IMG/VR virus record: IMGVR_UViG_3300030099_007635 | Coordinates: 41,431-105,430 of that record | Reading direction: 5' to 3' (one strand) | Origin: a virus | Length of the DNA: 64,000 nt | In this document: one piece after another, positions 16,939-64,000 of the stretch | Layout: every line of letters starts with the position of its first letter | Position numbering within the stretch: position 1 is the first letter of the stretch | The notes under the pieces: model-generated | What the model saw: the letters and a program-made list of their open reading frames with translations, nothing else | Databases searched by the model: none | What the model was told of the DNA's origin: nothing | Program-made: the position numbers and the translations under genes

Positions 16939-17735
16939 ATTAATTTAGACAATAGCATATGAGACTTGCGGCAGTCGAGCTTTTTATTGCTGAAAAAAAA
17001 CTTTTGCTCGTTTTCGATTGAAGATGCCTTTTCTACAAAAAGCGATTCAGAAACATGATGTCCATTTAATTGCCAATGTTTTATTACTGACTGCTCTTGT
17101 AGATCTGCTATATAAGTGCAATTGGATTGGCGAACTATTATTTTTCTTTCTTTAAAGAAAGTATCTTTGCTCCAGATCATTCTGCATAAAGGAGAAGACG
17201 AGGAAAATACTGTTGTTTTATTAAGCTTCATAACTTTATAATCTGTTACCTCGTCTAAATCTAAAAGGTGAAAAAGTAAATCTATGTCGTGTATCCCAAT
17301 GTCTTCAAAAATAGAAACGTCTGAGGACTCTTCAGAAACACAACATCTACTAAAGTCTATGTTTATAAGCTTGTCTTTTTCTATGCTTTTTTTTAAGGTT
17401 TGGATTGTAGGATTAAATCTTTCAACCATTCCTACCATAAGGTTTTCATCTGCCAACATGATATCAACGTGACCTTTTTTCAGAGCCACAGGCTTTTCCA
17501 CAAAAATCTTACCCTTATATCCGCTATTTCTCACATACACATAATTGTCGTAGTGATATTTTTCGGGAGATGTAATAAATATTCTATCAAAACAATTTAA
17601 ATTATTTAAATCACACCTTTTGGACAAAGGTCCAACTGGATCGGGATCATACCAATACCAGTCTATATTGTTTTTGGTTAAATATTTAGCGTGAACCTTG
17701 CCTATGTTTCCATAGCCTATTATTAAACACTTCAT
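16935..17735 (-). CDS. Gfo/Idh/MocA oxidoreductase
   Basis: IIGYGNIG, VEKP, ERFNP, DIGIHDID. Confidence 0.85.
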   Translation of the reverse strand: MKCLIIGYGNIGKVHAKYLTKNNIDWYWYDPDPVGPLSKRCDLNNLNCFDRIFITSPEKYHYDNYVYVRNSGYKGKIFVEKPVALKKGHVDIMLADENLMVGMVERFNPTIQTLKKSIEKDKLINIDFSRCCVSEESSDVSIFEDIGIHDIDLLFHLLDLDEVTDYKVMKLNKTTVFSSSSPLCRMIWSKDTFFKERKIIVRQSNCTYIADLQEQSVIKHWQLNGHHVSESLFVEKASSIENEQKFFFSNKKLDCRKSHMLLSKLI

Positions 17736-18079
17736 AGTTCTTCAATTCTTTTGGCCTTGTCATCAATTACTAAATCAAAAGCTGGTTTAGGTTTTGGGCT
17801 TGTCCCTGTAATCAATTCGTGATATTTACAACCCCATTGTTGAAGTTGTTGTGTTGTGTATTCATAATAATCTACGCCTGAAGTCGCCCCTCTCGCAGTC
17901 CAATAAATAATCCTCCAGCCTTTCTCATAAAGGCCGTTTATCTTTTCTATATTTTTTTTGCTTGGAATTGCTAAATCATATCGTCGAGAACCTTTTTTAT
18001 AATAACAGATGGTTTCGTCTATATCTACTAATGCCACCTTCCCTGTAATTGTTTTTTTGCTAGCTTCTTGAAAGTTCAT
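17732..18079 (-). CDS. Small HAD-family phosphatase
   Basis: VDIDETI, WTARG, KP, IDDK. Confidence 0.8.
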   Translation of the reverse strand: MNFQEASKKTITGKVALVDIDETICYYKKGSRRYDLAIPSKKNIEKINGLYEKGWRIIYWTARGATSGVDYYEYTTQQLQQWGCKYHELITGTSPKPKPAFDLVIDDKAKRIEEL

Positions 18080-18080
18080 T

Positions 18081-18728
18081 TTAATAGTTTTCTGTAGGAG
18101 AATTTTTATACCACCAAAGAGGGTGAGTGCTGACTAATAGCTTCTTCCATTTGTTTAAGTGCAGAGAAAAACAGCCCTCTCGCCACCTACAGCTACTATC
18201 TGATAAATATTTAAAATCCCTAAAGGTAGAAGAATTGGGACATCTATTTTTTTCAGGAATAAGGTCTTTTACATCTATTCCCGTTCTAACTGGTTCGTGG
18301 ATATTGAAGCATTTTATTTCTTTTCCTAGAATGTTAGAGAGTATTTTTAACTCGCTATTAACATGTTCTTCGTGTGAAGCGTTTTGGGGGCAAAAACTAG
18401 GCTCATAATGCAGTCCTATTTGCTGTCCAGCATTTAGTATTTTTTTGGCTATTTCAATAGAAGCTGGTGATAGCATATTGTATTGTCTTGCATGTAATCT
18501 TAAGAAATAAGTCGAAATAACACCAAGCTCTTTTTCTGTGTCCAAAAAATTAGAACAAAGAGATATGTCGTGATCAACATCATGAACTAACACAATTATT
18601 TTGCAACTGTCTGCCAAGGGCAATCCTGCCCCTCCATCCCATGGGGTGATTGCATCACGAAATACATATCCCTCATCTTTGTATTTTTGTAACGTGTTTT
18701 TGTAATGTCTTATGGTAAAGTCGCTCAT
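18081..18728 (-). CDS. Polysaccharide deacetylase-like protein
   Basis: HDVDHD, STYF, IGLHY, HEP, YLSDS, THPLWW. Confidence 0.65.
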   Translation of the reverse strand: MSDFTIRHYKNTLQKYKDEGYVFRDAITPWDGGAGLPLADSCKIIVLVHDVDHDISLCSNFLDTEKELGVISTYFLRLHARQYNMLSPASIEIAKKILNAGQQIGLHYEPSFCPQNASHEEHVNSELKILSNILGKEIKCFNIHEPVRTGIDVKDLIPEKNRCPNSSTFRDFKYLSDSSCRWREGCFSLHLNKWKKLLVSTHPLWWYKNSPTENY

Positions 18729-18729
18729 T

Positions 18730-19794
18730 TTATTTATCTATAACCCTCCCGTTATATTCAAAAATTTCTTTCCAAACTCTGGTTAATTTGGTTCCCCATT
18801 TTATTTTGTAATCATTTGTATTTTCTATTGATAATACTTCACAGATAGCTGCTTCAAGCAGATCAACACCCGCACCTCTACAGTGCTCCATGGTGCCTGA
18901 AACTCTGGGGTTTATTTCTAGAAGTTTGGGTTGTCCTTGTGAATTATATTTAAACTGTAGGTTTATATTATATTTTAAATCTAGAGCATTATATAAAGTC
19001 TTTGAAAGGCTTATTAAATCTTGTTTTTCTTTAGTCTCTCCCCCAGTGCATATTCCCTCTTTTATCTGATCTCTGCTTCTAGGTATACAGAAAAAATTTT
19101 TCTTTGTTCTTAAACAGTCTACGCTATACTCCTCCCCTTCTAGATATTCCATTATCATTAAATCTTGAAAAGATTTGCCGCCGTCTGATAGAATTTTGTA
19201 TAAGTCGGAGAACGAAATATTGCTTTGAGTATTTTTTTGAGAGAAGAAGTCTTTTTTGCTTATGTTTTCTTTAATTATTCTAAACCCTCTGCTGCCGTGC
19301 GCTGAAACAGGCTTGACACAAGTAGTTATTCCTTTCTTGTCAAAGAACTGATAAAGTTCAGATAAATCGTCTACATTATTACAGATATTATAACTGGGAA
19401 TAATCTGCCCAAGCCCCACTTTTTTACAAAACTTAAATAAGCTGTCCTTGTTTAATATTTTTTTCAAGGAAGAGCTTCCTGATGCAAGTATTTTACAAGA
19501 TATGCTTGAAAAATCTGAAGCAGCAGTCGCTAAAGGTATTAACTCTTCATCTGCACAAGGTATAATGAGTTTTATGTTGTTTTTTTTACAATAGCTGAAT
19601 AGTGTGGGAATATATTCTGGAGACGCTCCTTTGGGGGATTTAAATGAGTGTTCAGCAAACTTAAGACCAAGAGAGTCTGGGTTCATATCGCAGCCATGAA
19701 TCGAAACATCCCTTAAAAGAGAAGAAGATTTAATAGAATTTCTAATATTAAGAAACCCAGGACAACCAGCGGCTGTTACTAAAATGTTTGTCAT
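18730..19794 (-). CDS. ATP-grasp ligase
   Basis: VKP...GSRG, MEYLEGEEYSVD, NLQF, LLEINPRVSG. Confidence 0.85.
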   Translation of the reverse strand: MTNILVTAAGCPGFLNIRNSIKSSSLLRDVSIHGCDMNPDSLGLKFAEHSFKSPKGASPEYIPTLFSYCKKNNIKLIIPCADEELIPLATAASDFSSISCKILASGSSSLKKILNKDSLFKFCKKVGLGQIIPSYNICNNVDDLSELYQFFDKKGITTCVKPVSAHGSRGFRIIKENISKKDFFSQKNTQSNISFSDLYKILSDGGKSFQDLMIMEYLEGEEYSVDCLRTKKNFFCIPRSRDQIKEGICTGGETKEKQDLISLSKTLYNALDLKYNINLQFKYNSQGQPKLLEINPRVSGTMEHCRGAGVDLLEAAICEVLSIENTNDYKIKWGTKLTRVWKEIFEYNGRVIDK

Positions 19795-20588
19795 TATCTA
19801 ATTCTTATATCTTTTAATAGTTTGTCAATTAGAGCTTGATTGTTTGGATCGCTAAGCGGTCTAACCATGTGTGCGGTCCAATAAAAACCATTGTTAATTA
19901 GCTCGGCATTGTAGCCAAAACCGTCCCTAGACCTACATATTTTCTTTGATTGAAGATTTTCTGAAACCCAAGCCTCTTCTAAAAAATATACGTCAGGGCT
20001 ATCAAAAACAAATGTTGAAATATAATCTTCATCTAATCCCCACCAATTGTTTCCTCTTCCTATCGAAGAAGCCCTTGGTAGCTGTGTTTTAATAGACCAT
20101 ACTTTATTTAATTCATCATGAAGGTCATTATCTATATTAAATACTTTTTTAAATGTAGATCCTTTTCCAGAATTTTGACCACTTCCTATGAGCTTCTCTG
20201 GGCCATATGGGTGTGGACCTAATCCAACCACAAACTTAGAATCATCTATCGGCTCTATCCTGTCCCATAAGGCGCTGGAAAGTGGAATTTCATCTATTCC
20301 AGATGTAAGACAAAAATCATTTGGGAAAAGATTTGCGATACCCCAATAAAGAGACCAAGTTACAGTCCAGTCTAGACTGGGGTTGCTTATAAATTCTTCA
20401 TGCTTAGGCAATAGGTAAACCTCTCCAAAATTAAAATTAACCTCCTTTTCAAGTTCCTCTTGAGTCCCTGCAAAAAGTAGGGTGGGAATAAGTGGCGTTT
20501 TTTTTGAATAAACTTCCGAAACAATGTTCCACATCCCCGAGTAAAGCGGATTGGAATTTAAAGCAAAAACTACTCTATCTAATTTCAT
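19794..20588 (-). CDS. Putative glycosyltransferase-like protein (paralog of 9166..9993)
   Basis: Same motif set as 9166..9993. Confidence 0.55.
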   Translation of the reverse strand: MKLDRVVFALNSNPLYSGMWNIVSEVYSKKTPLIPTLLFAGTQEELEKEVNFNFGEVYLLPKHEEFISNPSLDWTVTWSLYWGIANLFPNDFCLTSGIDEIPLSSALWDRIEPIDDSKFVVGLGPHPYGPEKLIGSGQNSGKGSTFKKVFNIDNDLHDELNKVWSIKTQLPRASSIGRGNNWWGLDEDYISTFVFDSPDVYFLEEAWVSENLQSKKICRSRDGFGYNAELINNGFYWTAHMVRPLSDPNNQALIDKLLKDIRIR

Positions 20589-21232
20589 CTTAACATCTCT
20601 CCGTGTTCAGGGTGCAGGGGTTGGTTTTCGGCGTTGAATGCTTGCCCAACAAAGTTTGTTCCAACACGGGCAGAGGGAAACGGGTTAATTTCAAAAAATT
20701 CATCATGAATGCAGCAATCGTTGTTAATAATTGGATATATACGTTCTCTTAAAAAGTTTTGGTCTACCTGCCAAAAGTCACCCTTGTGGTATTTTTCAAT
20801 GAGATTATCCATGTCTTTTAGAAGATCTCCTCTAACCCCCCACATGCCCCCAAGTATTTCTGTTTTGTGAAAGGGATGGTCTCTCATAATGTGAAAACTT
20901 TTTCCGCTAGAAAGCCACTGATCTACTGCTAATTTCTCCCTTTTGTCGAGCCTACAGTCAGTATCGCGTGATATCATTACATCTACAGTGGGGTCGCTTG
21001 CTGGAGAAAATCTCCAAAACATGCCGTTCCAACTTCCCTCTTCGTTCATTTCAATCACTTTAGTGTTAGGTTGTTCTTTTAATTGTTCTTTAATTTCAAG
21101 AGGACAAGATTTGCCCACATAAAACCAACACTCCCATTCAGGGTAAATTTCTTGGGCAATCTTAGCATTATTAACTGCACCTACTGTATAAACAGGGTCT
21201 GTCCCCCATAAACTAAAGCTTATAACTTTCAT
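20585..21232 (-). CDS. Putative GT-A glycosyltransferase
   Basis: ISFSLWG, MFWRF, SRDTD (DxD), HIMRDHP, ILGGMWG, DQNFL. Confidence 0.6.
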   Translation of the reverse strand: MKVISFSLWGTDPVYTVGAVNNAKIAQEIYPEWECWFYVGKSCPLEIKEQLKEQPNTKVIEMNEEGSWNGMFWRFSPASDPTVDVMISRDTDCRLDKREKLAVDQWLSSGKSFHIMRDHPFHKTEILGGMWGVRGDLLKDMDNLIEKYHKGDFWQVDQNFLRERIYPIINNDCCIHDEFFEINPFPSARVGTNFVGQAFNAENQPLHPEHGEMLR

Positions 21233-21978
21233 TGGTATAAATTTTGAATTTCTCTATCTTCCTTTTGTGCTAACTGTAAATTTTCTACAGAAACAGAATC
21301 ATCCCTGTGGTAGAAACAACCTATGATGTCTGGTATTTTTTTAAATTTAAATTTATTGGCAGAGAGATTTAGCCACATCTCATAATCTCCCGAAGAGGTG
21401 TATTTTTCTTTGAAGAATCCACATTTTTCTATAGCTTCTTTCCTTACCAGTGGAAATGGGCCACCAATACAAAGTTTAAGTAGAGTTTCGTGTGAATAGT
21501 CGGGCCAATTTCTCATGCCTACGATATTATCAAAGCTTTGTGAGTTAATAACACAGCATGGACTATAAAACAAATCTACTTTTGGATTTCTTAATATATA
21601 TTCTGTATATGTTTGAAGAGCGGATGGATACAATAAGTCATCAGTATTCCAATTCATAACATAGTGACCATTAGCTTCTCTTATCCCCATATTCCAAGCT
21701 GTATAGATACTAATTCTTTCTAGATTTTCTATAATGCTTACTTTTATTCCATCTCTAAAATCAAATTTTTGTATTATCTCTAGAGAGTTGTCGGTGGAAT
21801 TAGCATCAATAAAAATAACTTCAAAGCTGTCCTCAAATTGATTATTGAGGGCATTTAAATATCCTTCTAACCACTTAGAAGCATTATAAACAGAGCAAAT
21901 AACAGAAATTTTAGGCCATTGTTGCCTCTTCCCAAAATTTCCGCGCTGCTCCTTCACAACCGTTTTTAAAGTTTTCAT
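21229..21978 (-). CDS. GT2 family glycosyltransferase
   Basis: KISVICSVYN, IDANSTD, AWNMG, NTDD, GDYEMWL; start uncertain. Confidence 0.85.
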   Translation of the reverse strand: MKTLKTVVKEQRGNFGKRQQWPKISVICSVYNASKWLEGYLNALNNQFEDSFEVIFIDANSTDNSLEIIQKFDFRDGIKVSIIENLERISIYTAWNMGIREANGHYVMNWNTDDLLYPSALQTYTEYILRNPKVDLFYSPCCVINSQSFDNIVGMRNWPDYSHETLLKLCIGGPFPLVRKEAIEKCGFFKEKYTSSGDYEMWLNLSANKFKFKKIPDIIGCFYHRDDSVSVENLQLAQKEDREIQNLYQ

Positions 21979-22762
21979 ATCCTACTTTTTCAAATTCTAA
22001 ATAAGAGCCTATTTTGGAACGGTCTCCAATTATTTCCTCTACTCCACATAAAAGAGCCTCTGCTATCATTCGGCAGAAAGGTTCATTTACAATTGGTGCG
22101 TGAAATACCGCTCGCGCTTGTTGAAATATCGAAGCTGTTTCGTGATGTTCACAAGACCCGTTAAATATAATATTTTTTTCACCCTCAAAAAGACTGTGGG
22201 GGTTTCTATCTGACCAACCAAAAACATCCACCTTTCTGTCTGGGTTATTTCTTGCAAAGTTCAAAAGGTTATTTAGTCCCTTAAGTGGGTGTAAATAGCC
22301 ACAATAAACAACATCATATTTTTTTTTCTTCTCTTCTTTTTTGAAAATTTTTGTGTTGATAGGGTCGTAAACTATCACGGCATTTTTGAAATAATCGCCA
22401 TAAAGATCTTTAAAGAAAGAATAATGATAATCACTTAAAAAGAAATTCTTTTTTGAATTATTAAACAAGATGCGCCTCTCCCCATTGGATAAATAAGAGC
22501 ATGAATCGTGCTCAAGCCTAACAGAATTAGGAAGTCTCTCAATCATGTTGAGCTTAGCAGGGGAAGTTTTGCTGATTGCCTCTAGATTTGAGTTTACTAC
22601 CAAATCATAAGACGTTAAAAAATCAACAATAGAAGAATTGTGATGATGCTCATCAATCTGATAACCTAGACTTCTACCCTCTTCAATAATTAGAGAATTA
22701 CTGACTTGTGCTCCACCTTGTCTTTGTTGAAGAGTAAAATCAGATATAAATAAAATTTTCAT
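21911..22762 (-). CDS. GT4-like glycosyltransferase
   Basis: GGAQ, YCGYLHPLKG, EPFCRMIAEALLCG. Confidence 0.8.
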   Translation of the reverse strand: MKILFISDFTLQQRQGGAQVSNSLIIEEGRSLGYQIDEHHHNSSIVDFLTSYDLVVNSNLEAISKTSPAKLNMIERLPNSVRLEHDSCSYLSNGERRILFNNSKKNFFLSDYHYSFFKDLYGDYFKNAVIVYDPINTKIFKKEEKKKKYDVVYCGYLHPLKGLNNLLNFARNNPDRKVDVFGWSDRNPHSLFEGEKNIIFNGSCEHHETASIFQQARAVFHAPIVNEPFCRMIAEALLCGVEEIIGDRSKIGSYLEFEKVGYENFKNGCEGAARKFWEEATMA

Positions 22763-22793
22763 ACCTTGCTAACGGTATGATTATATCCAGAAA

Positions 22794-23210
22794 TTACTCT
22801 TCTTCCAGTGCTGGAGGGTGAAAGGTTTGTTCTCCTTCTTTGTCTGCAATATTAGCTAGAAGTAAATCTGTGCGAGCAGAGGTAAAATCCAAATCACTAA
22901 AATCCCAAAATGGATCTGCTTCCTCTTGCTCATATGTTCTATCGGTCCCCTTAACAATGTCTATATCGTGAAATAAATAGTTTTTTTTGACCTCTCTGTC
23001 GGCAGATAATCTCAAAAACATATTTACCCTAGCCATGGCGCATTGGGCCTTGGTTTTTAGTGGTTGCCAATTAAAATCAGTAGCCTTTTCTCCTCTCTTA
23101 TAAACGCGGATTAATTGATCTAGGGTGACTGATGATTCGTGCCTTTGATTAAAAATCAGAACCTTGCTTATAAGGCACTTATAGATTTTTTCCGAAAAAG
23201 TAAGGTTCAT
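22794..23210 (-). CDS. Phage hypothetical protein
   Basis: L..VYKRG...AMARVN.FL motif; preceded by GTGTAA. Confidence 0.65.
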   Translation of the reverse strand: MNLTFSEKIYKCLISKVLIFNQRHESSVTLDQLIRVYKRGEKATDFNWQPLKTKAQCAMARVNMFLRLSADREVKKNYLFHDIDIVKGTDRTYEQEEADPFWDFSDLDFTSARTDLLLANIADKEGEQTFHPPALEEE

Positions 23211-23248
23211 TATAAAAAAATTACACTTTTAATTATTAAAAATGAATC

Positions 23249-24895
23249 TTAACCCTCGCATGAAGAACAGTTAAGAATTGATCTGGCTAACTCCTGACTT
23301 GGATTAGCACTTCTCTGATAATAAAAGCTTTTAATTCCTTGTTCCCATCCGAAAATCAAAAGTTCACTGACTTGTTTGGGCGGGCATTTCGGAGCTACCA
23401 TGATATTTAGGCTTTGGCCTTGGTCAATATACTTCTGGCGCTGCGAGGCTTGAATTACAATTTCTTTTTGGGAGATTTCTCCAAAGGTCTTAAATACGTC
23501 TTTTTCTTCTTGAGTAAGAAAATCTAGATGCTGCACTGATCCTCCTTTTTGTAAAATTGATTTCCAAGTTGTCTGTGTATTCTTTTTCTTCTGCTCTAGA
23601 AGGCTTTCTAAATGTGGATTTTTATAAGTAAATTTACCTTTAGCTAAATCCTTGGTAAAGTAGTTGCTGTTTAGAGGCTCAATAGAGGGGGAAATCTGAC
23701 CTAAAATAAAGGAACTAGAAGTCGTAGGAGCAATTGCCATAGTGGTCATATTGCGGCGACCATAACCCTGAAGATGTTCGGGTTCCCCCAACAGAACAGC
23801 AAGCTCCTTGGTGGCTTCTTCACAGTTTTGTTTAATTTTTTTATGAATTTCACTGTTCAAAAATTTAGCCTCCATGCTTTCAAAGGCTATCATTTGCTGT
23901 TGCAAAAATGAATGCCACCCCAAAACCCCAACCCCCAAGGCTCTTTGTTTTTTGGCAAAGTTGTGGGACGCTTGCATGAATGGAATCTCTTTTGTCTTCT
24001 TGATGTATTCCTCCATTACAGCATCTAAAAAATAAACCAGAGTCTGAACGGCATCCGTTTCCTTAATTTCGTTCCATTTAGCTAAGTTTAGAGAAGAAAG
24101 GCAGCAAACAAATGATTCATCTTGAGAGGAGTGTAAGAATATTTCGCTACATAAATTAGAAGCACTAATTTTTAATTTATTGTCCTTATATGCTTTTGGG
24201 GCTTTTTTGTTCGCTGTATCTGTAAAGAAAAGATAGGGATATCCTGTTTCAAATCTTTTTCTTATAATCGAGGCCCAAGTTAATCTTTTCTTTCGATCTC
24301 CTTCTATGAGGGAGCGCATCCATTCGTCACTAATACAAACACCAAATGACATCTCTTGAATTGGATTTCCCTCGCTTCTTATTCTTAAAAACTCGTTTAT
24401 GTCGGGATGTTCTACGGGGAGATATGCGGCAAAAGAACCCCTTCTTACGTTGCTTTGAGAAACAACAGAAGAAACTTTATCAAAAAGTTCCATGAAATGG
24501 ACTGGACCGCTGGATGTTCCTCCTGCTGAAATTTCAGCGCCTCTACTTCTAAGGTCACCAAAATAGGCAGAGGTTCCCGCTCCATGTTTGGTTTGCATTC
24601 CCACTTCAGCTTGTTTTTCCAAAATCGCATCCATGCGATCCTCTATAAAGACTCCATTGCATGAAATTGGCAAGCCTCTTTCTCTTCCGAAGTTGGCCCA
24701 TATTGGGCTGGCTAAAGAATAAAACCCTTGAGCCAAGTAGCTCTCAAATTTCTCAGCGAATCCCTTTACTTTTAAATATTTTTCTGCCGCTACAGCAATA
24801 TCATGACCTCTTTGTTCGGCAGATTCTCCTGTTTGTAAATAACCACGCTTTAGAAAATCGCGAGAGTCCTTGTTTAGCCATTTATATTTTTTCAT
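23249..24895 (-). CDS. nrdA: Ribonucleotide reductase class I alpha subunit (short, no ATP cone)
   Basis: PISC, RRGS, SNLCSEI, CCLSSLNL, APTTSSS, YYQRS, C-terminal CSSCEG. Confidence 0.95.
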   Translation of the reverse strand: MKKYKWLNKDSRDFLKRGYLQTGESAEQRGHDIAVAAEKYLKVKGFAEKFESYLAQGFYSLASPIWANFGRERGLPISCNGVFIEDRMDAILEKQAEVGMQTKHGAGTSAYFGDLRSRGAEISAGGTSSGPVHFMELFDKVSSVVSQSNVRRGSFAAYLPVEHPDINEFLRIRSEGNPIQEMSFGVCISDEWMRSLIEGDRKKRLTWASIIRKRFETGYPYLFFTDTANKKAPKAYKDNKLKISASNLCSEIFLHSSQDESFVCCLSSLNLAKWNEIKETDAVQTLVYFLDAVMEEYIKKTKEIPFMQASHNFAKKQRALGVGVLGWHSFLQQQMIAFESMEAKFLNSEIHKKIKQNCEEATKELAVLLGEPEHLQGYGRRNMTTMAIAPTTSSSFILGQISPSIEPLNSNYFTKDLAKGKFTYKNPHLESLLEQKKKNTQTTWKSILQKGGSVQHLDFLTQEEKDVFKTFGEISQKEIVIQASQRQKYIDQGQSLNIMVAPKCPPKQVSELLIFGWEQGIKSFYYQRSANPSQELARSILNCSSCEG

Positions 24896-56027: not shown

Positions 56028-57066
56028 CTTGTTGACCAATTCCTAAAACTCTTGCTTTCCATTCAGACATTCCCTCTAATCTTTCGGCTTCCTTCTTCAC
56101 TGCTTCTTTTTGCATCTCTGCTATCTTAATCATCGTTTTTCTCTCCTCTTCTTCCTGAAAGAGTTGAACAATAGATAGAAACGAAGCATTTTCTTTCTGC
56201 ATCTTCTTCATTCTCTCACCTCGATCACCCTGTAGCTTCTTCGTTAGATTCTCAATGCGAGTTTCACACTGATGATACTCAGAACTCTTAGCCTTGATGA
56301 TTTCAGCCAAGCGAATAGACATTTCTGCCTGTTCATCGGCCTCATCAAACATATTGTTCAATTTATTGAGGTGAGCACTAATAACCTCCAAATTAATTAC
56401 CTCCTTGCAGACATTTAAATACAAATTAATTTCATCTGCTGTTAGATCGGGCTTATCCCATGTTAAACGTATAAACTCATGCTCAAAGAGAACTCGATCC
56501 TCTTCATTGAGATAATTATTAATAATCTTTAGAAATCTTGAGTTAGAAAGATTAACTCCAAGTTTTTCAACACAAACTTGCTTTTGTCTGTTAAGTTTTG
56601 GTTCATCTAAGCCTAGCCCAGTAGCATCATTGATTTTTTTGATGATTCGTGATGGAGACTTAGGTGAAATGTATGAACTCAGCGCCCCGCTATCTTGTGA
56701 TGGCAAGATATCTGGATTAACAGCACGAATTTCAGCTAGCACTGCTCTTTGCTCAGAACTTAATGGCATTACTCTTCGATCTGAAAAAACAATTCGCGCA
56801 ATTTCCAGTGAAGACAAACCTGTCTCAGCTTGTTGAATGATGAATTCACGCTGTTCGCGTGTAAAGTCGATGACTTCCGCTGGTGGGCGACCTGTGGTTT
56901 TAAAATCTATTGAATTTTCTACCAAAAACTTCCTGACAGCCCTTCCTTCCTTAGACCTTCCGTCTAAAGAGTCATCATCGAAACACTGTTTCGTCAAATC
57001 AATCAAATTTGGAATTCTAGAGGCGTTTTCACGCAAAAAGTCCTTTTGTTCTTTAGAAAGGTCCAT
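56017..57066 (-). CDS. Hypothetical HTH/coiled-coil protein (possible terminase small subunit)
   Basis: SSLEIARIVF HTH-like segment, C-terminal coiled coil, upstream of terL. Confidence 0.4.
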   Translation of the reverse strand: MDLSKEQKDFLRENASRIPNLIDLTKQCFDDDSLDGRSKEGRAVRKFLVENSIDFKTTGRPPAEVIDFTREQREFIIQQAETGLSSLEIARIVFSDRRVMPLSSEQRAVLAEIRAVNPDILPSQDSGALSSYISPKSPSRIIKKINDATGLGLDEPKLNRQKQVCVEKLGVNLSNSRFLKIINNYLNEEDRVLFEHEFIRLTWDKPDLTADEINLYLNVCKEVINLEVISAHLNKLNNMFDEADEQAEMSIRLAEIIKAKSSEYHQCETRIENLTKKLQGDRGERMKKMQKENASFLSIVQLFQEEEERKTMIKIAEMQKEAVKKEAERLEGMSEWKARVLGIGQQDVL

Positions 57067-57757
57067 CTCCTATAATATCTTCTTCGTTTAGGATTTCAAA
57101 GGCCGTCTCTAGAAACTTCTTTTTCAAGTTCTTTACTTGTCGATAACCTAACTTCTTTTTTTGAGGGGATATCTTGTATCCCATAAATCGAGCAACGTCT
57201 TCTTCAGTCTTATCCTCAAAATATAACATTCTGTAAGCCACATAGTGCATGTCGCTTAATTTCAACTCCATAAAGAAATCAAGCCGCCTAAGAGAAACGT
57301 CAAAATTGAAATCAGTGTATTGTTTAGACTTAACCTCCTTAGCAAAATCCTCAGTAGAAAGAGGCATCTTAAGTTCTAAGCCTGTTTTCTTTGACTTTTC
57401 CCACTTCGCATAAAGCTTGCAACTACTGTCCTGTTTTTTGCTAGTCGTTGAGGCACAATCTTCGCCTCGGGCAAATTTACAGCTAGAGCAGGGTTTGACA
57501 TAATTGCCATAGTGGTTCCTGACTAAGTTTCTAATCTGGTTGGAGATGATTCTACCTATCCACGGCTCAAGGGGTCTCTCCTGATCCCACATATGCCACT
57601 TTTTGGCTATGTGTAATTTAATGATCTGCTCTACATCTTCAAAATCAAACCACCTAACAGCTTTCAGTCTCCACTTAAACTGTTGCCTCTTAATAGCGGC
57701 ATCTATGATGTCTGAAAAATCTTCGTAAGTATACTCACCCTTCTTTTTTCTTTTCAT
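57053..57757 (-). CDS. ECF-like sigma factor with Cys4 insertion
   Basis: DFEDVEQ...WDQERPLEPWIGRIISNQIRN (region 2), C..C...C...C insert, EEDVARFMGY (region 4). Confidence 0.7.
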   Translation of the reverse strand: MKRKKKGEYTYEDFSDIIDAAIKRQQFKWRLKAVRWFDFEDVEQIIKLHIAKKWHMWDQERPLEPWIGRIISNQIRNLVRNHYGNYVKPCSSCKFARGEDCASTTSKKQDSSCKLYAKWEKSKKTGLELKMPLSTEDFAKEVKSKQYTDFNFDVSLRRLDFFMELKLSDMHYVAYRMLYFEDKTEEDVARFMGYKISPQKKKLGYRQVKNLKKKFLETAFEILNEEDIIGDGPF

Positions 57758-58073
57758 CAATAAATTCATCAACAGAGCGACTCTTTCTTCCCTCTTCGTT
57801 TTTTCTAGACGGTGGCTCGCCTATTAATGAACCTAATGTGATAGTATTTCGTGAGTCTTCTACCTCATACTGAAAATTTGCAACTACAGGAACAGAATTA
57901 GAGTCGGTTTCATCTGAAGATACTAAAACAGACTTTTCAATTGTGGGTAGTCCTGCGGCAGTATTAGTTGAAACGCTATTGCCAAGCTGAGTTCCGCATT
58001 TACTGCAAAAATTTGGCTTTGCGTGAGCATATGAAATTTTAGTTCCACAACTTTGACAAAATAGGTGAGCCAT
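57735..58073 (-). CDS. Zinc-ribbon protein
   Basis: FCQSCG...NFCSKCG. Confidence 0.75.
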   Translation of the reverse strand: MAHLFCQSCGTKISYAHAKPNFCSKCGTQLGNSVSTNTAAGLPTIEKSVLVSSDETDSNSVPVVANFQYEVEDSRNTITLGSLIGEPPSRKNEEGRKSRSVDEFIDEKKKEG

Positions 58074-58194: not shown

Positions 58195-58911
58195 TTACAC
58201 TTTCTTGTGTGTTTCTAATTTTGAAATAATAAATTTTAGGATTTTACTACGGACAATATCAGCACGGGTAAATTTAAAGGAATGAATTCCATTTTTTTCT
58301 GACTTCTCATCAGAGAACAGATCGAACATTTCTCCAAAGCCTGTTTTGCCATTAATGTCACTCTGCATGAAGTCTCCACAGATAATTAACTTACTATCTT
58401 CGCCTAGTCTTGTAACTAACGTGGTAAGCTCCTTAAAGGTAAAATTTTGCGCTTCATCGGCAACAATTAACTTATTGCTCCAATTAGCCCCTCTTAAGAA
58501 ATTTATAGGAACGGCTGATATACGACCCTTCTGCTTCAGAAAGGCCGTGTCACCCTCAAACACAATTTCTTCAAGTTTATCATACAAAGGCATCAAAAAG
58601 GGGTTAAACTTTTCTGCCATATCTCCAGGCAAGCTACCTAGACCTTTATCCGCACTTTCTGCAATACTTCTTACATATAACAATTCTTTTTCGGTATCTT
58701 CTGCCATAAGGCGCAAACAGCCATAAAGAGACATGTATGTCTTACTCGATCCCGCTGGACCAGAAACGAAGAATATTTTTACTTCGGGGTCAAGCAGTGT
58801 TGATAAGAAGCGCCGCTGACGCGTAGTGAACTTGAAGTTCCTTTGCTTAAATTTAATGGAGTGATGAAAGTGCGGCTCCAACTGTATACTGGACAATTTT
58901 TTAAGTGCCAT
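58195..58911 (-). CDS. phoH: PhoH-family ATPase
   Basis: GPAGSSKT, LGSLPG, FLRG, DEAQN, TRLGE, GDFMQSD, DIVRS. Confidence 0.93.
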   Translation of the reverse strand: MALKKLSSIQLEPHFHHSIKFKQRNFKFTTRQRRFLSTLLDPEVKIFFVSGPAGSSKTYMSLYGCLRLMAEDTEKELLYVRSIAESADKGLGSLPGDMAEKFNPFLMPLYDKLEEIVFEGDTAFLKQKGRISAVPINFLRGANWSNKLIVADEAQNFTFKELTTLVTRLGEDSKLIICGDFMQSDINGKTGFGEMFDLFSDEKSEKNGIHSFKFTRADIVRSKILKFIISKLETHKKV

Positions 58912-59975: not shown

Positions 59976-60207
59976 TTTTTGATTATATAGGGGGATGATT
60001 TTTTTTAAACAATAAAATAAGCCTTGCGCCCCGAAAATACCCGTCCAGAGAAATGGGGAGGGGAATGCCCGTTGACAGATTGAGAAAATACTCCCCCCGC
60101 GAATTAGTGTAAAAAACCTCTTAAAAATTTTTGAGAAATGGGTGGGGGTTTGAACGTTGTCAAGTTCTTTTTTAAAGAAAAAAAACGAAAATAAATGCTT
60201 TTTTCTC

Positions 60208-60236
60208 TTGCTTTTCTCTGAGATCTGTGGTATACT
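60208..60236 (+). promoter_or_regulatory. Early promoter P1
   Basis: A-tract, TTGCTT-N17-TATACT with TGTGG extension. Confidence 0.8.
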
Positions 60237-60261
60237 TACAGAGTAATAAGACAATAAAGCT

Positions 60262-60498
60262 ATGACTAACTTGACTACCACACTCACCGCCGCTATCGCC
60301 TCCGCTGTTCGCCTTGCTCCTCGCTTCGCCAATGAAGATGGCGAGTTGATCTTTAACTCTCTGATGGACTGGTATCCTACGCTCACCGAAGGTCACGCTG
60401 ATATGATCGTGCGCCGCGCTTGCATGAATGCCACGGCTGGCTCCAAGGCTGTTGGCTGGGATACCTTCGCCGCCGATCTCCTCAAGGAGATGGCTTAA
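60262..60498 (+). CDS. Early hypothetical protein
   Basis: 78 aa after P1. Confidence 0.75.
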   Translation: MTNLTTTLTAAIASAVRLAPRFANEDGELIFNSLMDWYPTLTEGHADMIVRRACMNATAGSKAVGWDTFAADLLKEMA

Positions 60499-60516
60499 AA
60501 AAAAATAAAATAAAGC

Positions 60517-60545
60517 TTGCTTTTATCCTGAATCTATCGTATACT
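60517..60545 (+). promoter_or_regulatory. Early leaderless promoter P2
   Basis: TTGCTT-N17-TATACT-6nt-ATG. Confidence 0.8.
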
Positions 60546-60551
60546 TACCAT

Positions 60552-60743
60552 ATGAAAATCAAAGACACTACCACAAAGTCCGATCTCGACAAGTTCCACA
60601 CTGAGCGCAAGGCGGCGCAGGTAATGCGGGATGATCTCAACTTCCTTATGGGATGGATCAAGCCCGACTGCCCACAGGGTGCATCTGCCCTTGAGCGTAT
60701 CCTTAAGGCTCACGAACAAAACAGAGAGCAAAGCTGGCTCTAA
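60552..60743 (+). CDS. Early protein (63 aa), paralog of 63050..63238
   Basis: MKIKDTTTKSDLDKF...HEQNREQSWL. Confidence 0.8.
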   Translation: MKIKDTTTKSDLDKFHTERKAAQVMRDDLNFLMGWIKPDCPQGASALERILKAHEQNREQSWL

Positions 60744-60761
60744 AAAAAAAGAAAATAAAAC

Positions 60762-60790
60762 TTGCAATCCTCTTAAACCTATAGTATACT
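60762..60790 (+). promoter_or_regulatory. Early leaderless promoter P3
   Basis: TTGCAA-N17-TATACT-6nt-ATG. Confidence 0.8.
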
Positions 60791-60796
60791 TACAGC

Positions 60797-61051
60797 ATGA
60801 AAGATAAGCAAACACCCTTCTTCGTTCTCTTCGGTAAAAAGAAAACTCACCGTGGCATCTCTGGCGAGATCTGCTTCGGTGGCAACTGGAAGCGCGAAAA
60901 GTGCGAGCGTCTCATCCGTAACCCTTTCGCTAAGATAGCCGAGGGAACTGGTCGCATTGTCGAGTTCCCTAGCCGTGAAGCGGCATGGGAGGCACACGGC
61001 GAACAGCTTGACATCGCGCATGGTCGCGTGAGCTTCGGCATAGGTCGATAA
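60797..61051 (+). CDS. Early hypothetical protein
   Basis: 84 aa after P3. Confidence 0.75.
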   Translation: MKDKQTPFFVLFGKKKTHRGISGEICFGGNWKREKCERLIRNPFAKIAEGTGRIVEFPSREAAWEAHGEQLDIAHGRVSFGIGR

Positions 61052-61090
61052 CAATCACCCAACACAATAATAACCTACCTAACTAAACAA

Positions 61091-61327
61091 ATGAAATTGT
61101 TCCTTAACAACTGGCTTCATCATACGCTAACCGCTATGCTCATCACTCAAACCTTCATGCTTGCGCTGATTGTGTTTGTTGTCTACTACTCAGGCACAGA
61201 GATAGCATGGCAATTCGTTAAAGAGTTTTACCCTAGTATGTGGCTACCACTCAGCACACTACCCGCTATCATCATCACCCTACCTGTCGCATTCCTCGAC
61301 GCAGTAATCTATAAGCAGAAAGCATAA
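61091..61327 (+). CDS. Early two-TM membrane protein
   Basis: Two hydrophobic stretches. Confidence 0.7.
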   Translation: MKLFLNNWLHHTLTAMLITQTFMLALIVFVVYYSGTEIAWQFVKEFYPSMWLPLSTLPAIIITLPVAFLDAVIYKQKA

Positions 61328-61329
61328 CC

Positions 61330-61449
61330 ATGGACAAGAGAGCACAATCCAAACACCGTAAGCAACTGAAGCGCAACCGCAAGAATAAAATCATTCGGAT
61401 GCAGAAGGTTGCCGAGAAGCGCAGAAAAAAACTTCAAAAAACAACTTGA
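61330..61449 (+). CDS. Very basic 39-aa peptide
   Basis: Not in track; MDKRAQSKHRKQLKRNRKNKIIRMQKVAEKRRKKLQKTT. Confidence 0.55.
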   Translation: MDKRAQSKHRKQLKRNRKNKIIRMQKVAEKRRKKLQKTT

Positions 61450-61482
61450 CATGTGGTAGTGTTAAGAGCAAGTAAAAACCCC

Positions 61483-61561
61483 CGTAACTCCTTGATACTC
61501 AGGGAGTTGCGGCGGGCGGGCCTCCCCGCGCCGCGCAAGTCGTTGATAGTCAACGACTTAC
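61483..61561. repeat. 79-bp double-palindrome element, copy 1
   Basis: CGTAACTCCTTGA-TAC-TCAGGGAGTTGCG, GC-rich hairpin, GCAAGTCGTTGA-TAG-TCAACGACTTAC. Confidence 0.95.
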
Positions 61562-61608
61562 ACAGCTTAATACGCAGAAAAAAAATGCAATAAAAACAAA
61601 AAAAGAAC

Positions 61609-61637
61609 TTGACTTTTATCTCAGGGTGTGGTATAGT
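61609..61637 (+). promoter_or_regulatory. Early leaderless promoter P4
   Basis: TTGACT-N17-TATAGT (TGTGG)-5nt-ATG. Confidence 0.85.
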
Positions 61638-61642
61638 TAGCC

Positions 61643-61870
61643 ATGCTTACATCATATGACCTTGTTGTTTCCGCTCTCCGTTTCATCCGCTTCGACGTTT
61701 CTAAGGCTCATCGCTACGCGATGCTTGTTGATGCCTTCGATGGCGTTGCTGATGTCGATAATCACACCATTCACAAGGTGCTGTTGCTGGCATACGATGC
61801 CCGTGACAAGGGCGACGATATCCGCGACTTTCGCGGCACTTGCGAGTTTATCCATCGGATGGCTTGCTAA
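61643..61870 (+). CDS. Early protein, distant paralog of 63291..63635
   Basis: VD..T...DA...DIR.FR..CE.I shared. Confidence 0.75.
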   Translation: MLTSYDLVVSALRFIRFDVSKAHRYAMLVDAFDGVADVDNHTIHKVLLLAYDARDKGDDIRDFRGTCEFIHRMAC

Positions 61871-61893
61871 GTGAAAAAAAGTGAAAATAATTC

Positions 61894-61921
61894 TTGCTTT
61901 TATCTCAAATTCGACTATACT
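61894..61921 (+). promoter_or_regulatory. Early leaderless promoter P5
   Basis: TTGCTT-N16-TATACT-6nt-ATG. Confidence 0.75.
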
Positions 61922-61927
61922 ACTACC

Positions 61928-62221
61928 ATGACAAATCAGGAAGCATACAACCACGGTTACAACGGCACTCTCACCCTCGACGAGCTTATGGCTCAGTTTG
62001 AGGCTCCCGCCTGTCACGCATACGATGAGCCGCCGCAGTTCTCTGCGTGGCGGTCAGGGGCAGAGGATGCCGCGTATGATGCGGAGTCTGATGCCGCCGA
62101 GTGCGACATGGAGCCTGATGACTTCATGACTGACGGCGAGGCTGATGCCGATGCGCTCGCCTCCGCTGGCTGGGGGACGGATGAGGATTATGGCTTCTAT
62201 GGCGACGAGTGTTTCGCGTAA
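61928..62221 (+). CDS. Highly acidic early protein (97 aa)
   Basis: Start MTNQEAY; ends DADALASAGWGTDEDYGFYGDECFA. Confidence 0.8.
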   Translation: MTNQEAYNHGYNGTLTLDELMAQFEAPACHAYDEPPQFSAWRSGAEDAAYDAESDAAECDMEPDDFMTDGEADADALASAGWGTDEDYGFYGDECFA

Positions 62222-62228
62222 GAAGCGC

Positions 62229-62307
62229 CGTAACTCACTAAGGCTCAAGCACTTGCGGCGGGCGGGCATGCCCGCGCCGCGCAAGTCGTTGATACTCAAC
62301 GAGTTAC
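62229..62307. repeat. 79-bp double-palindrome element, copy 2 (left palindrome degenerate)
   Basis: CGTAACTCACTAAGGCTCAAGCACTTGCG-GCGGGCGGGCATGCCCGCGCCGC-GCAAGTCGTTGATACTCAACGAGTTAC. Confidence 0.92.
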
Positions 62308-62402
62308 AACACAAAATATAAGCATAGTCTGCGGGGGCTGTCAAGTAAAAACTTACTATTTGTCTATTTTTTTTCTGAGCTAGAAAAAAAGAATAAAAAA
62401 GC

Positions 62403-62430
62403 TTGCGTTTCGGTGGGGTTGTGGTATAGT
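62403..62430 (+). promoter_or_regulatory. Early leaderless promoter P6
   Basis: TTGCGT-N16-TATAGT (TGTGG)-6nt-ATG. Confidence 0.8.
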
Positions 62431-62436
62431 TACACC

Positions 62437-62580
62437 ATGACAGACCGATACATTGTTTACCATCAGTGGTCTAAGGATGAAGAGTTCCGAGGCACACGCG
62501 CAGAGTGCGAGGCTTGGGTTGCAGCTTTCAACCTTCCCAAGTTCGCCAAAACCTTTTTTATATGCCACGAAAGCAAATAA
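62437..62580 (+). CDS. Early 47-aa protein
   Basis: Not in track; MTDRYIVYHQWSKDEEFRGTRAECEAWVAAFNLPKFAKTFFICHESK. Confidence 0.7.
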   Translation: MTDRYIVYHQWSKDEEFRGTRAECEAWVAAFNLPKFAKTFFICHESK

Positions 62581-62597
62581 AAAAGAATAAAAATCCC

Positions 62598-62626
62598 TTG
62601 ACAAATACCGCAAGCTGTGGTATAGT
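62598..62626 (+). promoter_or_regulatory. Early promoter P7
   Basis: TTGACA-N17-TATAGT (TGTGG). Confidence 0.85.
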
Positions 62627-62666
62627 TACCTATAATAAAACATTAACTTAACTCTAAAAACTACCT

Positions 62667-62996
62667 ATGAAATTCTCTATCTCTACTCTCACTGACCTCT
62701 TCCACAAGTTCCCCTCTTCTGAGGCTTTCCGCACTGACAAGTTTCGCGAGGCTCTTAACGATAAAGTGGTGGACTACTGTGCCGCCGATTCACGCGATGG
62801 CAAGGATGTCATTCGCAAGTTCATCGTCCATGACGTTGACTCTTCATGGATTGCCGAGTCTAACGGCAATGCTGTCATCTCTGTCGATGTCGTTGAGGTC
62901 GAGGGCGGCGAAAATCGCCAAATCAACATGACTGTCGGCAGGATCGAAAAGATCAACGGGGAGCCTGTCCCCGAAGTCGTCAAGTGGGTCGGCTAA
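62667..62996 (+). CDS. Early protein, possibly WYL/SH3-like fold
   Basis: VVDY...G...RKF...RQINMTVGRIEKI pattern. Confidence 0.65.
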   Translation: MKFSISTLTDLFHKFPSSEAFRTDKFREALNDKVVDYCAADSRDGKDVIRKFIVHDVDSSWIAESNGNAVISVDVVEVEGGENRQINMTVGRIEKINGEPVPEVVKWVG

Positions 62997-63015
62997 AAAA
63001 AACTGAAAATAAATC

Positions 63016-63043
63016 TTGCGTTTATCTCAATCTGTGGTATAGT
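63016..63043 (+). promoter_or_regulatory. Early leaderless promoter P8
   Basis: TTGCGT-N16-TATAGT (TGTGG)-6nt-ATG. Confidence 0.8.
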
Positions 63044-63049
63044 TACATC

Positions 63050-63238
63050 ATGAAAACGAAAGAGACCAAAAAGTCCGACTTCGACAAGTTCACCACCGAG
63101 CGCAATGCCGCGCAGGTAATGCGGGACGATCTTTGCTTTCTTGTTGGTTGGATCAAGTCCGACTGCCCACAGGGAGCGTCTGCCATTGAGCGCATCTTGA
63201 AAGCGCACGAACAGAACAGAGAGCAGGACTGGCTGTAA
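63050..63238 (+). CDS. Early protein (62 aa), paralog of 60552..60743
   Basis: MKTKETKKSDFDKF...HEQNREQDWL. Confidence 0.8.
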   Translation: MKTKETKKSDFDKFTTERNAAQVMRDDLCFLVGWIKSDCPQGASAIERILKAHEQNREQDWL

Positions 63239-63256
63239 AATAAATCAAAATAATCC

Positions 63257-63284
63257 TTGCGTTTATCTCAATCTCTGCTATACT
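63257..63284 (+). promoter_or_regulatory. Early leaderless promoter P9
   Basis: TTGCGT-N16-TATACT (TGC)-6nt-ATG. Confidence 0.8.
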
Positions 63285-63290
63285 AATATC

Positions 63291-63635
63291 ATGACAGTTA
63301 AGAAACCAGCATTCATCTACGCCCTCATCGTTGAAACCCTCAAGGCTTGTCGCACCAAGGAAAGGGGAACAGGATGTTCTCTTGAGGGGAAGGTTGACAC
63401 CTATACCGCCGCCGTCATTATCACCATGTGCAAGGACGCAGTTGAGGAGCGGCGTGATATCCGCGAGTTCCGCAAGGTGTGCGAGGAGATACTCGCCGCC
63501 ATCTTGCGCTTGCGTAGGGACACGCGCCCAGACATTCACCCGCTCTGCCGCCATAGGCTAACCAAGGAGGAACTCATGTTAGTTACCGATGACCTCACCG
63601 TAGAGCCACAAATTGAAGCCAACCAAGTCTGGTAA
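63291..63635 (+). CDS. Early protein, distant paralog of 61643..61870
   Basis: 114 aa after P9. Confidence 0.75.
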   Translation: MTVKKPAFIYALIVETLKACRTKERGTGCSLEGKVDTYTAAVIITMCKDAVEERRDIREFRKVCEEILAAILRLRRDTRPDIHPLCRHRLTKEELMLVTDDLTVEPQIEANQVW

Positions 63636-63661
63636 AAAAAAGAAAAAAAACCGCTTGACAA

Positions 63662-63740
63662 CGTAACTCCTTGATACTCAGGGAGTTGCGGCGGGCGGGC
63701 CTCCCCGCGCCGCGCAACTCGTTGATACTCAACGACTTAC
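63662..63740. repeat. 79-bp double-palindrome element, copy 3
   Basis: Identical to copy 1 except two positions in the right palindrome. Confidence 0.95.
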
Positions 63741-63787
63741 GCAAGTTACTACGCAGAAAAAAAATCACCGAAACGCAAAAAAACTTC

Positions 63788-63816
63788 TTGACTTTTAAAT
63801 CAACCTGTGGTATAGT
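63788..63816 (+). promoter_or_regulatory. Early leaderless promoter P10
   Basis: TTGACT-N17-TATAGT (TGTGG)-5nt-ATG. Confidence 0.85.
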
Positions 63817-63821
63817 TAGGC

Positions 63822-64000
63822 ATGAAAATGAATGACCTTCCTACCACCTTCGTCCTCACTGGAAACTTCGGTCCTTACGCGGCTGGCACTACCTTCTCCG
63901 TGGAGTGGGCTGAAAACAGGGGTATGCAACTTGATACTAATGCTGGAGAACTCAAGTGGTTCTATGCTACAAAGTTTATGCACCAGCTTATGGGTGCGAT
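63822..64000 (+). CDS. Early protein, runs off window
   Basis: MKMNDLPTTFVLTGNFGPYAAGTTFSVEWAENRG... open to the end. Confidence 0.7.
   Translation, partial: MKMNDLPTTFVLTGNFGPYAAGTTFSVEWAENRGMQLDTNAGELKWFYATKFMHQLMGA

Follow-up and report, generated by a model that had tools for sequence, protein, structure and literature searches.

Bacterial interspersed mosaic elements (BIME) and repetitive IHF-binding palindromic elements (RIP) of enterobacteria are dispersed intergenic composites in which GC-rich REP palindromes flank an IHF site, and roles in topology, termination and mRNA stability have been proposed for them. Phage SPO1 encodes a DNABII protein of its own, TF1, whose sites overlap strong early promoters and which prefers DNA containing hydroxymethyluracil. 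In T4-type phages the cassette joints of the plastic early regions carry promoter early stem-loops (PeSLs), in which a near-consensus sigma-70-type promoter is combined with a stem-loop, the latter being a short and variable terminator hairpin of the form GN-loop-CN or A3-4G3-loop-C3T3-4 (PMC2839356, PMC4122927). The consensus of IHF itself is WATCAR-N4-TTR, with WATCAR between two kinks 9 bp apart and TTR in the flank, and the protein reads DNA via the minor groove and its shape (bioRxiv 10.1101/382655). In T5-like phages the first-step-transfer DNA ends in the iss (injection stop signal) region, a single conserved block that does not code for protein and contains DnaA boxes. Here we compare with these systems a 79-bp element that occurs in three copies among the early genes of an uncultured phage. 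The DNA analysed, referred to below as the window, is a stretch of 64,000 nucleotides (IMG/VR record IMGVR_UViG_3300030099_007635, positions 41,431 to 105,430), and each copy of the element consists of two related 27-bp palindromes joined by a GC-rich spacer.

Like the PeSLs, the element is a repeated motif standing at the cassette joints of a plastic early region together with near-consensus sigma-70-type promoters, and both are associated with gain, loss and swapping of cassettes. At the joints marked by copies 1 and 3 a stem-loop is followed by such a promoter 48 nt downstream. The element differs from the PeSLs in having two conserved 27-bp palindromes and a GC-rich spacer without a U-tract instead of a short terminator-type hairpin, and in belonging to a phage that appears siphovirus-like and not to a T4-type myovirus. 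With BIME/RIP the element has in common that it is a dispersed composite between genes, built from palindromes, GC-rich DNA and an IHF-type site. The layout of BIME/RIP is inverted in the phage element, in which IHF-like palindromes flank a GC core, and the element is found in phage genomes, whereas BIME/RIP belong to the host chromosome. With the TF1 sites it shares the presence of DNABII-like sites at the host-takeover promoters of a lytic phage, but no DNABII gene was found in the clade (see below).

Anatomy and family of the element

The three copies lie on the plus strand of the window at 61483-61561 (copy 1), 62229-62307 (copy 2) and 63662-63740 (copy 3), and each starts 8-34 nt past a stop codon. 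Palindrome A, the GC spacer and palindrome B occupy positions 61484-61510, 61511-61534 and 61535-61561 in copy 1, positions 62230-62256, 62257-62280 and 62281-62307 in copy 2, and positions 63663-63689, 63690-63713 and 63714-63740 in copy 3, the starts of the two palindromes being 51 bp apart in every case (61484/61535, 62230/62281 and 63663/63714). The GC core, GCGGCGGGCGGG-N4-CCCGCGCCGC, was found three times, whereas 0.00 matches were expected from 100 shuffles; its loop is CCTC in copies 1 and 3 and CATG in copy 2. The palindrome consensus proposed in the initial annotation of the window had 12 matches over both strands (0.01 expected), and palindrome A of copy 2 is a degenerate version with 3-4 mismatches. 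Together with the cassette promoter downstream, copy 1 makes up a 163-nt repeat (D4). On the plus strand, copies 1 and 3 form three hairpins each, the left stem having 13 pairs with G-U at both non-Watson-Crick positions; copy 2 folds as one long hairpin. Both strands of all copies folded strongly, the z-scores ranging from -4.8 to -7.4. The only open reading frames (ORFs) that overlap the copies are short and probably spurious. In number, position, common orientation, spacing, loops, folds and intergenic placement, the copies were thus as the initial annotation had described them.

The family counts given here derive from stretches of viral contigs in IMG/VR that matched the 27-bp palindrome pattern; more than 119 such stretches were listed, a few contigs contributing several. 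A relaxed scan of these loci yielded, among the matches listed, at least 754 unique palindromes and at least 340 unique pairs, with a start-to-start spacing of 50 bp in 214 pairs, 49 or 51 bp in 40 and 41 or 42 bp in 47. Element-bearing contigs of 105-170 kb encode a terminase 36-65% identical to that of the window, which indicates that they form one clade. Among the whole relatives, seven pairs (4 + 3) were counted in G001; the 11 pairs of G003 lie within 8.6 kb and the 14 of G002 within about 17 kb. In these three genomes the pairs are confined to the GC-richer early regions, and only four weak single matches were found outside them. Three palindromes in a row were also seen, in L078 (5230-5376, with 60-bp spacing and an identical hairpin-bearing spacer) and in L037 (2971-3117 and 6266-6377, triplets spanning 85 bp), which suggests that the docking site can be arrayed beyond pairs.

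No published description of the element was found with the half-site strings or the TTGA-N3-TCAA cores, the matches being primers, satellite DNA and FabT boxes, and an Rfam search gave no match (the best hit, Acido-1, reached 17.7 bits, the gathering score being 50). The initial annotation had not recognised a named element here, and none fits. The 79-bp repeats are members of a large family, undescribed in the literature searched, in the early-gene regions of related uncultured marine phages. The element also breaks short-read assemblies, contigs ending at its copies, which is of consequence for viromics.

Conservation of the palindromes in sequence

Over the 754 sites, A3, T10 and A18 were invariant, and A4, T24 and T25 were present in 749-753. 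A purine was found at R19 in all 754 sites and at R26 in 752, and position W14 was A or T in 82%. At positions 5 and 23 each half has C or G independently of the other, and the two are unpaired in 312 of the 754 sites; positions 8 and 20 showed no covariation. When 140 elements were aligned (A1), 83.1% of the cells were paired, as compared with 81.6% after shuffling of the 3' partners, and the variable pairs were unpaired in 43-56% of the cells. In elements oriented by a single promoter, the numbers of G-U and A-C mismatches on the promoter-sense strand were 35 and 38 in palindrome A, and 61 and 39 in palindrome B. Covariation had been proposed in the initial annotation as a check on the folded structure, and the palindromes failed that check, no compensatory change being seen in them. 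Taking into account that the half-sites each keep the consensus without such change, the symmetry has the signature of a dimeric DNA-binding protein and not that of an RNA or single-strand fold. The palindromes are without hairpin constraint and are probably read as double-stranded DNA sequence.

The spacer is 86% GC, and its folding energy is -8.6 kcal/mol, as compared with -7.6 kcal/mol for shuffled sequences. Its sequence is not conserved across the family: the spacers of one genome resemble each other but not those of other genomes, a pattern that points to concerted evolution. Since the spacer is conserved neither in sequence nor in fold, the GC hairpin seen in the window appears to be lineage-specific. 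The initial annotation had described the element as palindrome-hairpin-palindrome, which is accurate for the lineage of the window; it does not extend to the family, as in the relatives the spacer is usually not an inverted repeat.

The half-site YAA-N4-YTGA is mirrored to TCAR-N4-TTR about a 3-bp centre, and its conserved positions coincide with the IHF consensus. The likeness to known IHF sites, such as H' and H1 of lambda attP, lies in the presence of WATCAR-N4-TTR in each half and in the two A|R steps, which are 9 bp apart like the kinks. Agreement with the consensus was 87% at T16, 89% at C17, 100% at A18 and R19 and 99-100% at T24 and T25; the A of WATCAR, at position 15, was present in only 46% of the sites. 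The S, W, R and Y degeneracies of the pattern would fit a readout of minor groove and shape. Known IHF sites are asymmetric, one half conforming to the consensus and the other being an A-tract, whereas the sites in the phage elements are mirror doublets, paired across the GC-rich spacer. A homodimer, or a protein able to bind in both orientations, would be suited to such a symmetric doublet.

A phage gene for a protein of the HU/IHF type (PF00216) was absent from six related phage records, and tblastn searches of the window and of the viral loci, three whole relatives included, detected none either, which implies that any such binder would be supplied by the host. The most likely binder is a DNA-bending protein of the HU/IHF kind that the host supplies. 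Among the roles considered in the initial annotation, the paired protein-binding site appears to be the one favoured by the conserved half-sites and the lack of compensatory covariation; its more specific forms, an injection checkpoint or a decoy, found no support.

Single occurrences of the exact 27-bp pattern were also found in bacteria from many phyla. Such single palindromes lie in the gap between a tRNA gene and an integrase gene, near a prophage small terminase gene and upstream of a Rep3 plasmid initiator gene, att-like, cos-like and plasmid-ori-like locations that are classic for IHF sites. The symmetric motif YAA-N4-YTGA-NWN-TCAR-N4-TTR was counted in five bacterial genomes, with the reversed pattern as a control that gave no match in any of them: there was one site in Falsochrobactrum, two in Pantoea, seven in Fibrobacter, 17 in Akkermansia and 488 in the 5.1 Mb of a Saprospiraceae metagenome-assembled genome (MAG; G012). 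In this MAG the flanks of the sites were not conserved and many sites lay inside crude ORF calls; presumably some abundant protein reads the motif there. A host motif common to the phylum was rejected, as 80 Bacteroidota genomes mostly had 0-5 sites (range 0-11) and the Saprospiraceae MAG was an outlier. A common regulon in Akkermansia was likewise rejected, since the genes beside its sites had no shared function, for which an architectural protein is better suited than a regulon-specific factor. A giant ORF in Fibrobacter, whose reading frame is uncertain, showed no similarity to the tape-measure protein of the window.

Promoters at the element and its possible function

Counted by orientation, an inward-facing TTGAC was found 119 times in the family with its end at a distance of 28-33 nt from the element, 65 of these at the 32-nt peak. 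If one mismatch is allowed, TTGACA was present at this distance in 109 of the 340 elements, against 18 of 680 background flanks. The consensus upstream of the palindrome consists of an A-tract, CTTGACA, 16 nt, TAwrGr, an A-run and C-y-T-C. With the -35 and -10 boxes at this fixed distance, transcription is predicted to start 0-5 nt before the palindrome, that is, at the edge of the element. Promoters converge from both sides on 24 elements; in at least one case, L106, the convergent promoters serve divergent gene blocks, and the two leaders overlap across the element. Smaller TTGAC peaks were observed at 2-5, 11-13 and 21 nt from the element, which suggests phasing with the DNA helix. About 30% of the flanks in the family contain an A-run or a T-run, the T-run being 4-5 nt from the stem.

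These observations are best accommodated, in our view with a probability of roughly 45 per cent, if the elements are paired double-stranded DNA sites for a dimeric host bending protein of the HU/IHF type that would gate or insulate early transcription units. In the envisaged mechanism the two palindromes of 27-29 bp, placed 50-51 bp apart by the GC-rich spacer of 23-24 bp, would dock the dimeric protein, and the DNA at the joints of the early cassettes would be folded by two sharp bends, one on each side of a stiff GC clamp. As these joints lie at or over inward-facing sigma-70-like promoter modules, the bound protein could gate, block or insulate the early transcription units, and the repeated elements together with the cassette promoters could offer homologous recombination places for the swapping of cassettes. 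A more specific proposal, which we regard as doubtful, is that of a new type of architectural gate, in which the host bending protein, on twin mirror-symmetric sites at the starts of inward-facing and often convergent promoters, would set the firing of the early cassettes and the modules would drive their exchange across a widespread clade of marine phages; which cassettes fire early could then depend on the amount of nucleoid protein in the host or on the condition of the incoming DNA.

Several observations speak against paired sites for a host bending protein. Two thirds of the elements lack a promoter at the fixed distance, and the -10 consensus of the inward promoters, TAwrGr, is without the usual final T. 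The match to IHF rests on a consensus of low information, and the conserved G1, T6, C7, G21 and A22 lie outside it; winged-helix regulators bind TTGA-N3-TCAA cores too, the FabT box being an example. The need for a GC-rich spacer is left without explanation. The symmetric motif showed no general enrichment across the 80 Bacteroidota genomes, and there are hints of a difficulty with the promoters themselves, as the main sigma factor of a Bacteroidota-type host would not read TTGACA/TATAAT promoters.

Other readings of the same observations have to be considered. A dimeric regulator encoded by the phage and unrelated to HU/IHF, for which the palindromes would be twin operators at about +5 to +80 that shut off or time the early promoters, would account well for the confinement of the element to one phage clade and its early region, and operators directly downstream of the transcription start are typical for repressors. 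A co-evolving core protein could also explain why the palindrome is conserved down to 36% terminase identity, and the clade has conserved proteins without assigned function beside the early region. No candidate emerged, however, from the conserved neighbours (a PhoH-like ATPase, a zinc-ribbon protein, an ECF-like sigma factor, DUF932 and a GP88-family protein), and the presence of the palindrome in unrelated bacterial chromosomes and mobile elements is more simply explained by a universal host factor; we consider such a regulator unlikely. Quite unlikely, too, is that the element acts as RNA, its hairpins stabilizing, terminating or processing early mRNAs from the 5' or 3' end or forming a small RNA. 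A protective 5' hairpin requires a transcription start right before the stem, and in a third of the elements the predicted start does fall 0-5 nt before the first stem; the strong folding of both strands, the A- or T-runs in the flanks and the position of the window copies shortly after stop codons would also agree with such a role. Against it stand the marginal difference in pairing between real and shuffled partners and the mismatch counts, since G-U and A-C are about equally frequent in palindrome A and palindrome B has no more than a mild excess of G-U. Moreover, one specific sequence of hairpins A and B is retained even between distant phages, a constraint that is not needed for an RNA helix. 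As the spacer hairpin is not conserved, no Rfam family fits and no intrinsic terminator or U-tract was predicted directly after the window copies, the RNA processing signal or non-coding RNA considered in the initial annotation finds little backing.

The initial annotation had also considered an attC- or REPIN-like site for the shuffling of cassettes, and a target of a site-specific recombinase or a cassette mover of the REP/MITE type (MITE, miniature inverted-repeat transposable element) has to be weighed for the family as well. The order of cassettes differs between close relatives, for example between L005 and the window, and among the contig joints from four marine runs some coincide with element edges (61508>63716, 61561>63723 and 62307>63662 among them); equally many joints, however, were found at the repeated promoter/ATG junctions, and all of them are weak evidence, the short sides being 21-49 nt and the contigs being broken at repeats. 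Homogenisation of the spacers within genomes could be taken to favour mobility, and so could the paralogous regions of G001 (L168-L175, a contig rated complete). Here a 5.76-kb direct repeat (17577-23281 and 141906-147652, 96.5% identity), which could be a real duplication or a two-strain assembly, has the element in one copy where the other has only the GC core, the palindromes being present in one and absent from the other; no target-site duplication was seen at this difference. The initial annotation was right that the window contains no recombinase, and resolvase (PF00239), tyrosine recombinase (PF00589) and Y1/RAYT (PF01797) genes were absent from two complete relatives and three that are 77-87% complete. 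In addition, tyrosine recombinases have overlaps of 6-8 bp and serine invertases an even 2-bp core, neither of which matches the 3-bp centre of the palindromes. Integron attC sites, characterised by R''/L''-L'/R' sites of the form RYYYAAC/GTTRRRY, a single-strand fold with extrahelical bases and an integron integrase, differ in needing a tyrosine recombinase and in strand bias, whereas the phage element is symmetric and without such bias (the attC core consensus was not scanned for), and REP/REPIN elements differ in their RAYT gene and covarying hairpin. Taken together, a dedicated recombination or mobility site is improbable. As breakpoints occur at promoters as well as at elements, ordinary homologous recombination is enough to explain them, and by analogy with the PeSLs of T4-type phages the repeated elements and promoters may simply serve as patches of homology for cassette swapping. 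Hardly credible, finally, is a role on the first-entering DNA in stopping or pausing injection or as a decoy, after the manner of the T5 iss region. That region is likewise rich in repeats and palindromes, and the elements lie in the early region, where they would bind a host protein upon entry. The analogy was set aside because there are 7-14 dispersed copies instead of one conserved block and the phage is not T5-like (DnaA boxes were not scanned for), and the association with promoters points to transcription.

If the elements are indeed paired sites for a host bending protein, a whole clade of abundant, uncultured marine phages of 105-170 kb would organise its host-takeover region by means of a rigid module that recruits an architectural protein of the host. 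This would give a handle on the wiring and insulation of early transcription in phages that have not yet been grown, and it would bear on cassette exchange. The symmetric 'super-consensus' site could also be used to probe HU/IHF-type proteins outside the enterobacteria.

The early region of the window and its genes

The window is part of a large tailed phage. Among its products are a large terminase, a ribonucleotide reductase and a tape-measure protein of 2393 aa; the last of these points to a phage of siphovirus-like type. No isolate phage with similarity at the DNA level was found, and the best identity of the terminase to that of an isolate phage was only about 25%, so that the phage is not T5-like. 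The sequence is present in marine metagenomes, and no RNA run was listed as containing it. The early region comprises positions 60000-64000 on the plus strand and has a GC content of 46-49%, as compared with 35-44% elsewhere in the window. It consists of small genes, each with a repeated promoter upstream that is made up of an A-tract, TTGAC, 17 nt and TGTGGTATAGT.

In most of the early cassettes (60200-64000) no more than 5-7 nt separate the -10 hexamer, TATAGT or TATACT, from the ATG, as in 61632-61637 with ATG 61643 and 63811-63816 with ATG 63822, and no Shine-Dalgarno motif was found at them; their mRNAs are predicted to be leaderless. In the window as a whole a loose Shine-Dalgarno-like 4-mer was present upstream of only 13 of the 52 ORFs of at least 150 aa. 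This scarcity is a hint that the host, possibly a member of the Bacteroidota, is not dependent on Shine-Dalgarno pairing, and such genes sit oddly beside sigma-70-type early promoters.

The promoter-like sequences around the three copies are as follows. Upstream of copy 1, on the plus strand, an inward -35-like TTGACA (61447-61452) lies 31 nt before the element, within the 28-33 nt peak, and is accompanied by a poor -10 (CAAGTA). On the minus strand at 62315-62344, an inward promoter-like TTGACA-18-TATATT has its -10 ending 7 nt before the right edge of copy 2; from its sequence, this site would transcribe copy 2 antisense to the neighbouring genes. An A-tract with TTGACA (63653-63658, plus strand) lies 4 nt before copy 3 without a usable -10, and a similar junction, with TTGACA 3 nt before the palindrome, recurs in the relative G003. 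Downstream, the cassette promoters TTGACT-17-TATAGT at 61609-61637 and 63788-63816 (both on the plus strand) start 48 nt after copies 1 and 3, respectively, and precede the ATG codons already mentioned. The corresponding sequence downstream of copy 2, TTGCGT-16-TATAGT (62403-62430, plus strand; ATG 62437), is promoter-like.

Conserved proteins encoded near the early region were examined as possible binders of the palindromes. A 239-aa protein (57053-57772, minus strand) is conserved in all relatives searched, with 37-53% identity. It gave a weak Sigma70_r2 match, resembled CnrH by profile, and its top fold matches were all extracytoplasmic function (ECF) sigma factors (probability up to 0.99); it is an ECF-like sigma factor with a cysteine-rich insertion, and as such it was rejected as the binder. 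A PhoH-like ATPase (PF02562, E = 1.7e-44; 58195-58911, minus strand) adjoins the early region and is conserved in 60 related loci; a zinc-ribbon protein and DUF932 are further conserved neighbours. Neighbouring proteins of 285 and 349 aa had no match in PDB or Pfam and were not retained. The best-conserved early-region protein of the relatives belongs to the GP88 family (PF17338; L034, 2826-3527, and 21 homologues, A2), with 53-61% identity and three invariant cysteines, and its gene lies outside the part of the genome covered by the window. It was dismissed as a binder, since its model (pLDDT 86.7) is of an alpha/beta, enzyme-like type and had no significant match in PDB, and none to a DNA-binding fold.

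Some further features of the window were noted. A 207-nt direct repeat with 81% identity (60570-60776 and 63065-63271) spans paralogous small genes of 63 aa (60552-60743) and 62 aa (63050-63238), which indicates that a cassette was duplicated within the early region. The motif AAGTGTAA occurs nine times, as compared with 3.2 expected, among other places at 23221, 25879, 41911, 45930, 58195 and 58925; several copies precede the start of a middle or late gene by about 10-20 nt, and the motif is a candidate promoter element for the sigma factor of the phage. Directly upstream of copy 2, a gene on the plus strand (61928-62221) encodes a very acidic, D/E-rich protein of 97 aa without a Pfam match, which might, speculatively, be a DNA mimic or a protein of the anti-restriction type.

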